In this document: piece after piece, positions 1 to 4,103 of the stretch | How the letters are laid out: each line of letters opens with the position of its first letter | Numbering within the stretch: position 1 is the stretch's first letter | Virus record (IMG/VR): IMGVR_UViG_2651869861_000013 | Coordinates: 1 to 4,103 of that record | Strand: one strand, 5' to 3' | From: a virus | Taxonomy: Duplodnaviria > Heunggongvirae > Uroviricota > Caudoviricetes | DNA length: 4,103 nt | The notes under the pieces: model-generated | The model's database searches: none | What the model was told of the DNA's origin: nothing | What the model saw: the letters and a program-made list of their open reading frames with translations, nothing else | Translations under genes and position numbers: made by a program

Positions 1-2551
1 TGGCGGCACGGAGCCGCGCATCACCTGTAATGCGTACCTGACCACGCGGCGCAAGGCGTGGGATGTGCTCAGTGATTTCTGCTCGGCGATGCGCTGTATG
101 CCGGTATGGAACGGGCAGACGCTGACGTTCGTGCAGGACCGGCCGTCGGATAAGGTGTGGACCTATAACCGCAGTAATGTGGTGATGCCGGATGATGGCG
201 CGCCGTTCCGCTACAGCTTTAGCGCCCTGAAAGACCGCCATAATGCCGTTGAGGTGAACTGGACTGACCCGGACAACGGCTGGGAGACGGCGACAGAGCT
301 TGTGGAGGACACGCAGGCCATTGCCCGTTACGGTCGTAACGTCACGAAGATGGATGCCTTTGGCTGTACCAGTCGGGGGCAGGCACACCGTGCCGGGCTG
401 TGGCTGATTAAAACGGAACTGCTGGAAACGCAGACCGTGGACTTCAGCGTGGGCGCAGAAGGGCTTCGCCATGTACCGGGCGATGTCATTGAAATCTGTG
501 ATGATGACTATGCGGGGATCAGCATCGGTGGGCGTGTGCTGGCGGTGAACAGCCAGACCCGGACGCTGACGCTCGACCGTGAAATCACGCTGCCATCCTC
601 CGGCACCACGCTGATAAGCCTGGTTGACGGAAGTGGCAATCCGGTCAGCGTGGAGGTCCAGTCCGTCACCGACGGCGTGAAGGTAAAAGTGAGCCGTGTT
701 CCTGACGGCGTTGCCGGATACAGCGTATGGGGGCTGAAGTTGCCGACGTTGCGCCAGCGCCTGTTCCGCTGCGTGAGTATCCGTGAGAACGACGACGGCA
801 CGTATGCCATCACCGCCGTGCAGCATGTACCCGAAAAAGAAGCCATCGTGGATAACGGGGCGCACTTTGACGGCGACCTGAGCGGCACGGTGAATGGCGT
901 CACGCCGCCCGCGGTGCAGCACCTGACTGCCGAAGTCACCGCAGACAGCGGGGAATATCAGGTGCTGGCGCGCTGGGACACGCCGAAGGTGGTGAAGGGG
1001 GTGAGCTTCCTGCTTCGCCTGACCGTGGCAGCGGATGACGGCAGTGAGCGGCTGGTCAGCACGGCCCGGACGACGGAAACCACATACCGCTTCACGCAAC
1101 TGGCGCCGGGGAACTACAGGCTGACAGTCCGGGCGGTAAATGCGTGGGGACAGCAGGGCGATCCGGCATCGGTATCGTTCCGGATTGCCGCACCGGCAGC
1201 GCCGTCTCGGATTGAGCTGACACCGGGCTATTTTCAGATAACCGCCACGCCGCATCTTGCGGTTTATGATCCGACGGTACAGTTTGAGTTCTGGTTCTCG
1301 GAAAAGCGGATTGCGGATATCAGGCAGGTTGAAACCGCAGCCCGCTATCTTGGCTCGGCGCTGTACTGGATAGCTGCCAGTATCAATATCAAACCGGGCC
1401 ATGATTATTATTTTTATATCCGCAGTGTGAATACTGTTGGCAAATCGGCATTCGTGGAGGCTGTCGGTCGGGCGAGCGATGATGCGGAAGGTTACCTGGA
1501 TTTTTTCAAAGGAGAAATCGGGAAAACACATCTGGCCCAGGAGCTGTGGACGCAGATTGATAACGGTCAGCTTGCGCCGGACCTGGCTGAAATCAGGACG
1601 TCCATTACGAATGTCAGCAATGAAATCACGCAGACCGTCAATAAAAAACTGGAAAATCAGAGTGCGGCAATCCAGCAGATACAGAAAGTTCAGGTTGATA
1701 CAAATAATAACCTGAACAGCATGTGGGCCGTGAAACTGCAGCAGATGCAGGACGGACGCCTTTATATTGCGGGTATCGGTGCCGGTATTGAGAATACGCC
1801 AGCAGGAATGCAGAGTCAGGTGCTGCTGGCGGCAGACAGGATTGCGATGATTAATCCTGCGAATGGCAACACAAAGCCGATGTTTGTTGGTCAGGGCGAT
1901 CAGATATTTATGAATGAAGTGTTCCTGAAATATCTGACGGCTCCCACCATTACCAGCGGCGGCAATCCTCCGGCATTTTCCCTGACATCAGACGGAAAGC
2001 TGACCGCTAAAAATGCGGATATCAGTGGCAGTGTGAATGCGAACTCCGGGACGCTCAACAACGTCACGGTAAATGAAAACTGTACGATTAAGGGCATGCT
2101 GGAGGCGACTCAGGTCAGAGGTGACTTCGTTAAAGCTGTATCCAAATCATTTCCGAAACAGGCTGGTACGTGGGGTAACACGGAAACACCAAACGGGACG
2201 GTTACAGTCACCATCAGCGATGATCATAACTTTGACCGTCAAATCATTATTCCGCCCATTATCTTTAACGGAATAGCGTATAGCGATCCGGGAAGTGGTA
2301 ATAACCCGGGAGGTACAAGATACACGGGTTATGGTTTTGAAGTTCGCAAAAACGGTGTATTAATCGCATCCAGAGAAACTAAAGGGGCCATTCCCGGTAG
2401 CTACAGTGCGGTTATTGATATGCCGAGTGGCAGGGGAAGCGTCACTCTGGAGTTTAAGGTTTTCCATAAAGGCAATCAGCGGGCAGGTAATATCACCGAC
2501 TGTACGGTGATTGTGACCAAAAAAGCGGCTTCCGGCATCAGTATCCGTTGA
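1..2551 (+). CDS. J: Tail tip / central tail fiber host-specificity protein J, 5'-truncated by the window edge (C-terminal ~850 aa present; codon phase starts at position 2; stop TGA 2549-2551)
   Basis: The reading frame is open from position 2 ([51 protein letters not shown]...) with no stop until 2549-2551. The translation closely matches my recollection of lambda gpJ through the N-terminal and central part, including the fibronectin-III-like segment (...[37 protein letters not shown]...) and the [42 protein letters not shown] block. The GTG at 65 used by the ORF track is an internal codon, not the true start. Confidence 0.93.
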
Positions 2552-2573
2552 AATATTTATAACCCTAATAACG

Positions 2574-2600
2574 GGCGCCAGAAATGGCGCCTTTTTTATT
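2574..2600 (+). terminator. Rho-independent terminator-like hairpin downstream of J (7-bp GC-rich stem GGCGCCA/TGGCGCC, GAAA tetraloop, then TTTTTTATT)
   Basis: Read directly: stem 2574-2580 pairs with 2585-2591, loop GAAA 2581-2584, T-tract 2592-2597 followed by ATT. The minus-strand version has no U-tract after the stem, so it is + strand only. Confidence 0.6.
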
Positions 2601-2610
2601 GCAGAAAATC

Positions 2611-2616
2611 GGGAGG
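2611..2616 (+). promoter_or_regulatory. Shine-Dalgarno sequence (GGGAGG) for lom, 5 nt upstream of the ATG at 2622
   Basis: GGGAGG followed by spacer TAATT and ATG; near-consensus ribosome-binding site with good spacing. Confidence 0.6.
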
Positions 2617-2621
2617 TAATT

Positions 2622-3221
2622 ATGCGTAAAGTTTGTGCAGCAATTTTGTCCGCAGCCATTTGTCTGGCCGTATCCGGTGTGCCTGCATGGGCGTCTGAGC
2701 ATCAGTCCACGCTGAGCGCAGGATATCTTCATGCCAGTACGGACGCTCCCGGCAGCGATGATCTGAACGGGATTAACGTGAAATACCGTTATGAGTTTAC
2801 GGACACACTGGGGCTGATTACGTCCTTCAGTTATGCCAACGCCGAAGATGAGCAAAAAACGCATTACAGCGATACCCGCTGGCATGAGGATTACGTGCGT
2901 AACCGCTGGTTCAGCGTGATGGCAGGGCCGTCTGTGCGTGTGAATGAATGGTTCAGTGCGTATGCGATGGCGGGTGTGGCTTACAGCCGTGTGTCGACTT
3001 TTTCCGGGGATTATTTCCGCGTAACTGACAACAAGAGGAAAACGCACGACGTGCTGACCGGAAGTGATGACGCTCGCTACAGCAACACATCTCTGGCGTG
3101 GGGGGCTGGCGTGCAGTTTAACCCGACCGAATCAGTGGCCGTTGATGTCGCTTATGAAGGCTCCGGCAGCGGTGACTGGCGCACTGACGGTTTCATCGTG
3201 GGTGTCGGTTATAAATTTTGA
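2622..3221 (+). CDS. lom: Lom outer membrane protein, Ail/Lom/PagC family 8-stranded beta-barrel (lysogenic-conversion 'moron'); predicted signal peptide 2622-2693
   Basis: 199-aa ORF with a strong RBS. N-terminus MRKVCAAILSAAICLAVSGVPAWA|SEHQ is a typical Sec signal peptide with an AxA cleavage site. The C-terminus ends ...GVGYKF, the terminal aromatic residue typical of OM beta-barrels. The translation is nearly identical to lambda Lom as I recall it (SEHQSTLSAGYLHAS...GINVKYRYEF...RWFSVMAGPSVRVNEWFSAYAMAGVAYSRVSTFSGDY...). Position directly after J matches lambda gene order. Confidence 0.93.
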   Translation: MRKVCAAILSAAICLAVSGVPAWASEHQSTLSAGYLHASTDAPGSDDLNGINVKYRYEFTDTLGLITSFSYANAEDEQKTHYSDTRWHEDYVRNRWFSVMAGPSVRVNEWFSAYAMAGVAYSRVSTFSGDYFRVTDNKRKTHDVLTGSDDARYSNTSLAWGAGVQFNPTESVAVDVAYEGSGSGDWRTDGFIVGVGYKF

Positions 3222-3242
3222 TTAGTAACACAGCGTTATGAC

Positions 3243-3269
3243 AGCCCGCCGGTTCAGGCGGGCTTTTTT
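3243..3269 (+). terminator. Rho-independent terminator downstream of lom (8-bp stem AGCCCGCC/GGCGGGCT, loop GGTTCA, T6 tract)
   Basis: Read directly: 3243-3250 pairs with 3257-3264, loop 3251-3256, TTTTTT 3264-3269. It lies 22 nt after the lom stop. No U-tract follows on the minus strand. Confidence 0.65.
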
Positions 3270-3271
3270 GT

Positions 3272-3275
3272 GGAG
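3272..3275 (+). promoter_or_regulatory. Shine-Dalgarno sequence (GGAG) for the side tail fiber gene, 5 nt upstream of the ATG at 3281
   Basis: GGAG then TGGGT then ATG. An in-frame TGA at 3239-3241 excludes a longer upstream start. Confidence 0.5.
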
Positions 3276-3280
3276 TGGGT

Positions 3281-4103
3281 ATGGCAGCAGTACAAATATC
3301 AGGCGTGCTGAAAGATGGTGCGGGAAAACCAATACAGAACTGCACCATTCAACTGAAAGCCAGACGTAACAGCACCACGGTGGTGGTGAACACGGTGGCC
3401 TCTGAAAATCCGGATGAGGCAGGGCGTTACAGCATGGACGTCGAGTATGGTCAGTACAGCGTCACTCTGTTGGTGGAGGGATTCCCGCCATCACATGCCG
3501 GGACCATCTCCGTGTATGAAGATTCTCAACCGGGTACGCTGAATGATTTTCTCGGTGCCATGACGGAGGATGATGCCCGTCCGGAGGCACTGCGTCGTTT
3601 TGAACAGATGGTGGAAGAAGCAGCGCGTCACGCAGAGGAGGCGAAGAAGAATGCCGGAGAAGCAGAGACGTCCGCGAGGAATGCCGGCATATCAGCCAGT
3701 AAGGCGGAAGCGAGCGCCGCAAATGCTGATACTTCAGCAGAGGATGCATCGGAGTCAGCCCGGCAGGCGGCAGAAAGTGCAGCCTCTGCAAAGAAGTCAG
3801 AGGAAGCGTCCTCGTCCTCAGCCTCTGAGGCCGCTCAAAAAGCCAGTGAGTCATTACAAAGTGCAACAGATGCCGAGTTGTCAAAAAAGACGGCAGAAAG
3901 TGCAGCCGGTAATGCAGCCAGGGATGCAACGACCTCAACAGAAAAAGCCCGGGAATCAGCAGAAAGCGCACAGTCAGCGGAACAAAGCAGAATAGCGGCG
4001 GAAGACGCCGTAAACAGAATTCCCACCGTGGTGGGGCCTCCCGGACCAAAGGGGGAACCGGGTCCCGCGGGTCCTCAGGGGCCGAAGGGAGATAAAGGAG
4101 AGC
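3281..4103 (+). CDS. stf: Side tail fiber protein (lambda Stf / orf-401 family), 3'-truncated by the window edge; N-terminal domain, Ala/Ser/Glu-rich low-complexity shaft, then collagen-like Gly-X-Y repeat
   Basis: ATG at 3281 with RBS. I translated the frame by hand from 3281 to the window end and found no stop (about 274 codons). This ORF is absent from the supplied track because it has no stop inside the window. The N-terminus MAAVQISGVLKDGAGKPIQNCTIQLKARRNSTTVVVNTVASENPDEAGRYSMDVEYGQYSV...FPPSHAGTISVYEDSQPGTLNDF... closely matches lambda Stf as I recall it. Gene order J-lom-stf is the lambda order. Confidence 0.88.
   Translation, partial: MAAVQISGVLKDGAGKPIQNCTIQLKARRNSTTVVVNTVASENPDEAGRYSMDVEYGQYSVTLLVEGFPPSHAGTISVYEDSQPGTLNDFLGAMTEDDARPEALRRFEQMVEEAARHAEEAKKNAGEAETSARNAGISASKAEASAANADTSAEDASESARQAAESAASAKKSEEASSSSASEAAQKASESLQSATDAELSKKTAESAAGNAARDATTSTEKARESAESAQSAEQSRIAAEDAVNRIPTVVGPPGPKGEPGPAGPQGPKGDKGE
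4034..4103 (+). repeat. Collagen-like Gly-X-Y triplet repeat coding segment within stf (GPPGPKGEPGPAGPQGPKGDKGE..., continues past the window end)
   Basis: Read directly from the translation in the stf frame: at least 7 consecutive G-X-Y triplets, proline-rich, starting at codon 4034-4036. Confidence 0.8.

Follow-up and report, generated by a model that had tools for sequence, protein, structure and literature searches.

Module composition of a lambda-type tip attachment protein J and its probable receptor OmpC

The stretch of DNA examined here (the window) comprises the 4,103 nucleotides at positions 1 to 4,103 of the virus record IMGVR_UViG_2651869861_000013 (Caudoviricetes). Its first open reading frame (ORF), on the plus strand and open from the first base, has 849 codons, ends at 2548 and is closed by a stop codon at 2549-2551. 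By its sequence, ORF 2..2548 encodes the C-terminal 849 residues of a tip attachment protein J of the lambda type, a protein that would count about 1165 residues in full. The protein is probably a functional J of the lambda family, a mosaic whose three exchangeable modules were joined through homologous recombination at each of two conserved junctions, with a receptor-binding domain (RBD) that most likely binds OmpC and not LamB. Its module A is a lambda/434 allele, its module B, the shaft, a cdtI/WGPS6 allele, and its module C, the RBD, the 'h434' allele of phage 434.

Mosaic structure of J

Five Pfam domains are found in J above their gathering scores and in the order of the lambda family: Phage-tail_3 (residues 15-180), Ig_J (294-398), Ig_J_second (400-502), Phage_Tail_Tip (556-684) and Ig_GpJ_C (713-848). 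The last is described in Pfam as 'C-terminal receptor binding domain'. The translation was aligned by MAFFT with lambda gpJ (NC_001416 15505..18903), and the fragment begins at lambda residue 317. The identity per 50 residues is 0.94-1.00 over window residues 1-500, and then 0.22, 0.38, 0.72, 0.88, 0.48, 0.22 and 0.41 in the successive bins. The break lies right after the motif GYLDFFKG, where window residue 504 corresponds to lambda residue 820. At the DNA level, identity with lambda runs to nucleotide ~1512 and divergence starts at 1513, in agreement with a sequence-only reading of the window that had followed lambda gpJ up to this motif, near nucleotide 1515. This left breakpoint falls at the boundary between the FNIII-2 domain and the shaft, and Ig_J_second stops just before it, at residue 502.

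Four segments are delineated by the alignment (Table 1). Module A (residues 1-504) is identical to lambda at 488 of 504 positions (96.8%), and also has 97.4% identity with 434 and 96.6% with cdtI. Module B (residues 505-650) retains 61 of 146 positions (41.8%), with an insertion of 28 residues in the window protein. The junction that follows (residues 651-690) is conserved at 37 of 40 positions (92.5%), and module C (residues 691-849, facing lambda residues ~985-1132) at 62 of 159 (39.0%). The drops in identity are significant (Fisher tests, p = 1e-49 and 5e-56). The patchiness that had been noticed beyond GYLDFFKG thus has these three segments as its substance, the conserved blocks named at the time are all present, and the last ~140 residues do differ from lambda as described. 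The extent had been overstated: the divergent region was called the C-terminal half, and it amounts to the last 345 of about 1165 residues (~30%). Over the last 250 residues the identity to lambda is about 54% (averaged from the 50-residue bins), far below the 95% that the sequence-only reading had taken as the mark of a lambda-like end.

Table 1. Features of the window.
Feature	Position	Strand	Remarks
J module A, lambda-type (end of hub region and two Ig/FNIII domains)	2..1513	+	residues 1-504 = lambda residues 317-820
J module B, alternative shaft allele (alpha-helical shaft and upper beta-prism)	1514..1951	+	residues 505-650
Conserved junction (lower beta-prism), likely B/C crossover zone	1952..2071	+	residues 651-690
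J module C, receptor-binding domain, phage-434 (h434) class by sequence	2072..2548	+	residues 691-849
Intrinsic-terminator-like element after J: G+C-rich hairpin (2573-2592) followed by a T-run	2573..2600	+	
lom, Ail/Lom outer-membrane beta-barrel, 199 residues	2622..3221	+	Pfam Ail_Lom full length, E = 1.8e-131
Second G+C-rich hairpin followed by a T-run, after lom	3243-3264	+	
stf (side tail fibre), N-terminal 274 residues, running off the window end	3281..4102	+	Pfam phage_tail_N, residues 3-134, E = 1.5e-68

The modules were further aligned, as protein and as DNA, with those of cdtI, 434, WGPS6, Ayreon, mEp332, 2851 and an Stx2c phage. Module B is 42.5% identical to that of 434, 96.6% to that of cdtI and 100% to that of vB_EcoS-783R2. 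It matches WGPS6, Ayreon and mEp332 at 92-100% per 25-residue bin of the multiple alignment, and is found at 90% identity or more in 65 phage records. The junction is 92.5% identical to that of 434, as it is to that of lambda, and 95% identical to those of cdtI and A8. The divergent part of J consists of two independent modules, shaft and RBD, parted by this conserved junction. Within the junction DNA the polymorphisms switch from WGPS6-like (nucleotides ~1900-1965) to 434/Stx2c-like (from ~1985), and from ~2045 onwards the window is near-identical to the Stx2c phage, Ayreon and cdtI. The GC content steps down from 60.1% in module A to 48.9% in B and 47.4% in C, which fits another origin for B and C than for A. 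A smaller fall, from 59.0 to 54.1%, is present in the J gene of lambda itself.

Modules A, B and C assort independently among phages. Phage 434 and the Stx2c/Stx1a phages combine a lambda-type B with a 434-type C, Lambda_2G7a and Chlobot combine a cdtI-type B (97.3 and 95.9%, respectively) with a C of non-434 type (44.2 and 46.2%), and WGPS6 has the same B and C as the window behind a divergent A. Modules B and C are contiguously covered in only 25 of the 74 phage records with this class of RBD. Differing module combinations, the polymorphism switch in the junction and the GC step together make the signature expected of homologous recombination at conserved linkers, and modular evolution by such exchange is classical for lambdoid phages. 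One crossover would have occurred at GYLDFFKG, where the second Ig domain ends, and the other in the prism segment TAPTITSGG...NANSGTL. By alignment offset, residue 964 of lambda gpJ is window residue 676 and lies within the conserved junction. A J of three modules with two conserved crossover junctions would be a natural case of the exchange that engineers use at this position.

Among the closest known relatives is J of phage 434 (UMO75286; h434 host-range allele; receptor OmpC). It shares with the window a closely similar module A, junction and RBD, as well as the gene order J-lom-stf. It differs by its lambda-type shaft, which is devoid of the 28-residue insertion, by its length (1137 instead of ~1165 residues) and by seven substitutions in the RBD. 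Orf18 of cdtI (BAF63351, 1165 residues) has the same A, B and C arrangement, with identities of 96.6, 96.6 and 98.7%, in the same J-lom-stf neighbourhood. The J proteins of cdtI, Ayreon and mEp332 are cdtI-like across all three modules and display only point differences from that of the window. Lambda gpJ (P03749; receptor LamB; structures 8IYK, 8XCG, 8XCJ and 8XCK) belongs to the same family as the window protein, has its domain order and fold, is presumably triggered in the same way, and is set apart by its shaft, its RBD and, as discussed below, its receptor class.

Class and fold of the receptor-binding domain

The classes of RBD were surveyed with the last 170 residues of J, used as a tblastn query against 50,697 phage records. 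The identities are bimodal over the 244 records that matched: 74 are at 90% or more, 170 are below 60%, and none falls between. The upper group includes phi458 (99.4%), the Stx2c/Stx1a phages and Perceval (98.8%), mEp460 (95.3%) and WGPS6 (93.5%). A genetically defined lambda h434 hybrid, lambda h434 imm21, is 94.1% identical over the 170 residues. Lambda stands in the lower group with 40.6%. Because no identity lies between the two groups, the assignment of the RBD to the h434 class is, as judged from sequence, unambiguous.

Aligned over the whole of module C, 152 of 159 residues (95.6%) are identical to those of 434 J. The seven substitutions, with the window residue given first, are E692Q, S716A, Q720K, A721V, N731D, S761D and R811G. 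Identity is 98.7% with cdtI, and 96-100% per 25-residue bin with Ayreon and the Stx2c phage. The RBD is distant from the LamB-binding class of lambda, and within the Pfam Ig_GpJ_C region the identity to lambda is 36.0%, with 11 query residues facing gaps. It is also distant from the OmpC-binding class of A8 (PDB 9WCB), with 44.7% identity over residues 691-849, the A8 gpJ sequence being that of the printed PDB-search alignment.

The search of the PDB with the J sequence returned as best matches gpJ of A8 (9wca, E = 7e-96) and of lambda (8xcj and 8iyk). A model of the last 250 residues was built with AlphaFold2 (AF2) on an alignment of 25 sequences. The predicted local distance difference test score (pLDDT) is ~75-94 over the RBD; its poor values in the beta-prism are to be expected when one chain of an intertwined trimer is modelled by itself. 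Comparison of the model with known structures, which had been proposed by the sequence-only reading, led to the gpJ fold: the top four Foldseek matches are all gpJ fibre structures (8xcj, lambda gpJ with LamB; 9wca, closed A8 gpJ; 8xck, closed lambda gpJ; 9wcb, A8 gpJ with OmpC; E = 1e-19 to 3e-14). The target-normalised TM-score of the monomer model with the 174-residue chain of 9wcb is 0.69. According to this model, the C-terminus folds like the gpJ fibre and RBD, and departs from the solved ones in its sequence class only. The A8 gpJ of these structures is a chimera (PDB 9WCA; 9WCB with OmpC of EDL933), in which a natural OmpC-binding C-terminus is joined to lambda gpJ inside the same conserved junction; its RBD belongs to another class than that of the window.

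The gpJ protein was divided by Ge and Wang (2024) into hub domains, FNIII-1/2, an alpha-helical shaft, a beta-prism and the RBD, and the opening of the RBD on the receptor was found to be transmitted upward through the prism and shaft (PMC11101478). Homology with the gpJ structures of lambda and A8 suggests that the same signalling may operate in the window protein. A trimeric RBD at the tip of the fibre would bind the trimeric porin OmpC rather than LamB, on contact with the receptor the RBD trimer would open, and this movement would be relayed through the prism and shaft until the tail tip opens.

Receptor assignment and its alternatives

The importance of the C-terminal ~250 residues of J for the host range, invoked by the sequence-only reading, is borne out by the literature. 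Specificity is set by the C-terminal part of J, the last 249 residues of lambda J bind LamB on their own, and lambda carrying the J gene of 434 binds OmpC, the receptor of 434 itself (PMC3509688; PMC11101478). Natural gpJ C-termini grafted at residue 964 of lambda gpJ retarget lambda particles from LamB to OmpC (Brodel et al. 2024, PMC11338833). Together with the published genetics of 434 and these grafts, the 95.6% identity of the RBD to that of 434 points to OmpC as by far the most likely receptor of the window protein. The anticipated change of receptor is therefore upheld in its first form, that of another outer-membrane protein, for which the near-identity to an h434-class RBD supplies the name of OmpC; the second form, a different allele of LamB, appears unlikely. 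On these grounds the protein is better annotated as an OmpC-type (h434-class) host-specificity protein than as a LamB-type one. Such a label is useful for predicting the host range of prophages and for choosing natural gpJ modules for lambda-based delivery particles.

Several points weigh against this assignment. Some of the seven RBD residues that differ from 434 lie in predicted loops, small numbers of mutations in J are reported to alter which porin is used by lambda and phi21, and OmpC-binding gpJ variants discriminate between OmpC alleles (PMC11338833). RBD class and receptor do not correspond one to one, as at least three classes (434, A8 and phi330), ~35-45% identical to one another, all use OmpC. 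No adsorption data were found for the J sequence of the window, for cdtI, phi458 or Ayreon, and the papers on phi458 and Ayreon report no receptor experiment. Both AF2 models, that of the C-terminus and that of the shaft described below, represent single chains, whereas the working protein is an intertwined trimer, and their confidence is low outside the RBD. As for the intactness of the whole gene, J is visible in its window part only, the N-terminal ~316 residues and the upstream gene I being outside.

Other sources were considered for the receptor. Phage phi330, which depends on OmpC and has WGPS6 as closest genome, was dropped as direct evidence, as its authors give its RBD as only 35-40% identical to that of 434. 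Phage 21 was dropped as an OmpC reference, since its native receptor is LamB. A 2026 preprint on receptor prediction covers GpJ of Drexlerviridae and is uninformative for lambdoid RBDs. PMC13190303 makes no mention of the PV3405xx lambdoid collection (mEp332, PhiR*) and holds no receptor data for those phages.

The most serious alternative is a 434-class RBD with a shifted specificity, brought about by the substitutions and perhaps by the longer shaft, so that it would accept certain OmpC alleles only, or OmpF or a porin from outside K-12, and not the OmpC of K-12. The seven substitutions are compatible with it, as is the finding that one to a few mutations in J add the use of OmpC or OmpF in phi21 and lambda, and the gpJ proteins of A8 and 1A2 accept different members of a set of 23 OmpC alleles (PMC11338833). 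However, the RBD shows 98.7-99.4% identity to its counterparts in cdtI and phi458, its 95.6% identity to 434 is well within a tight class at 90% or more, and phi458 and Ayreon, which carry this RBD, form plaques on K-12 derivatives. A shift of this kind is accordingly judged unlikely. The plaques of Ayreon, which is cdtI-like in A, B and C, and of phi458, which was matched over B and C only, also indicate that a J with this combination of B and C is functional.

It is very unlikely that the gene belongs to a decaying, non-inducible prophage in which the allele no longer serves adsorption. Lambdoid remnants are very common in E. coli, with a median of 3 matching places per genome and a maximum of 16, and the 5' end of J and the rest of the prophage lie beyond the window. 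Against decay, all 849 visible codons are in an open frame, no Pfam domain is broken or out of order, neither lom nor the start of stf is disrupted, the terminators are in place, and near-identical alleles occur in phages that form plaques. The retention of LamB, or of a variant LamB allele, with divergence by neutral drift in a tolerant domain, is the least probable alternative and can hardly be entertained. It would agree with a fold and domain order like those of lambda gpJ, and with LamB and OmpC being both trimeric porins, but an RBD only 39% identical to that of lambda, with insertions and deletions, is at odds with it. Moreover, the h434 class genetically redirects lambda from LamB to OmpC, and the bimodal RBD identities and abrupt DNA breakpoints favour the replacement of discrete alleles over drift. 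The binding of OmpC by an h434-class RBD is retained as the preferred reading.

Shaft length, occurrence and downstream genes

Module B is 28 residues longer than the shafts of lambda and 434, and the extra residues probably lengthen the helical shaft. An AF2 monomer model of module B, of low confidence (mean pLDDT 52, best region 61-77), predicts one long helix at residues 526-572 that spans the insertion. A hydrophobic periodicity of 3.5 residues in this region is modest, 2.2% of shuffled sequences reaching the same value. The difference of 28 residues is exactly four heptads, and hydrophobic residues are spaced by 3-4 from L528 to L550. A canonical coiled coil is not claimed, as a single a/d register accommodates only 6 of the 12 core hydrophobic residues. 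Combined with the seven-substitution 434-class RBD, the longer shaft might confer a range of OmpC alleles or a triggering that differs from those of phage 434. This is a speculative and rather improbable proposal; if true, the shaft module would co-determine the host range instead of being a neutral spacer.

The DNA of modules B and C is identical to that of the window at 96.0% in cdtI and phi458, 95.7% in ev099, 95.4% in Ayreon and 92.6% in mEp332, phi458 and ev099 having been compared over B and C only. Of 5,426 complete E. coli genomes, 1,165 contain at least 80% of the B and C stretch, with up to 97.4% nucleotide identity. Homologues of the J protein come from E. coli, Shigella sonnei and E. 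albertii, and among contigs of one genome per species Escherichia is the only genus with this RBD. A 98%-identical copy of the RBD (match 680-1189) is carried by a 1350-bp contig, JAGZNZ010000056.1, that was binned into a metagenome-assembled genome of 'Collinsella sp.'; this contig is almost certainly a mis-binned fragment of an Escherichia prophage. The best record match to the whole 4.1-kb window does not exceed 93.8%. The J of the window is one more recombinant of known modules and not a new module, and its A, B and C arrangement is a common allele that was already sequenced. The finding is real but ordinary, the combination being already common in E. coli prophages, and has little import beyond a correct annotation.

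The order J-lom-stf of the window is common to lambda, 434, cdtI, WGPS6 and Ayreon. The two G+C-rich hairpins on either side of lom would make it a separately terminated unit, and terminators are annotated at the corresponding positions in phages 434 and Ayreon. The lom gene belongs to the context and lies outside the adsorption apparatus. The exact 199-residue Lom protein recurs in a very large number of E. coli prophages (more than 9,000 index blocks). In prophages of the enterohaemorrhagic E. coli type (e.g. O55:H7 CB9615), the same Lom adjoins a 1137-residue J of other module composition, without the shaft insertion. Its gene stands there upstream of genes for type III effectors (NleB/SseK, Peptidase_M85, NleG and OspG-like). 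With the same Lom found beside differing J proteins, lom and the modules of J also assort independently.

The side tail fibre stf is the second adsorption determinant of lambdoid phages. In the window its N-terminus runs into a low-complexity stretch rich in Ala, Ser and Glu (nucleotides ~3650-4020), with a very high AT skew (0.42-0.47), and collagen-like G-X-Y repeats (GPPGPKGEPGPAGPQGPKGDKGE) appear at the window edge. Two ORFs overlap the low-complexity part of stf, one antisense of 195 residues (3462-4049, minus strand) and one of 141 residues in an alternative frame (3570-3995, plus strand). Both look like frame artefacts of a repetitive coding sequence. An analogous antisense ORF, 'orf206b', is annotated inside orf-401 in the lambda record.

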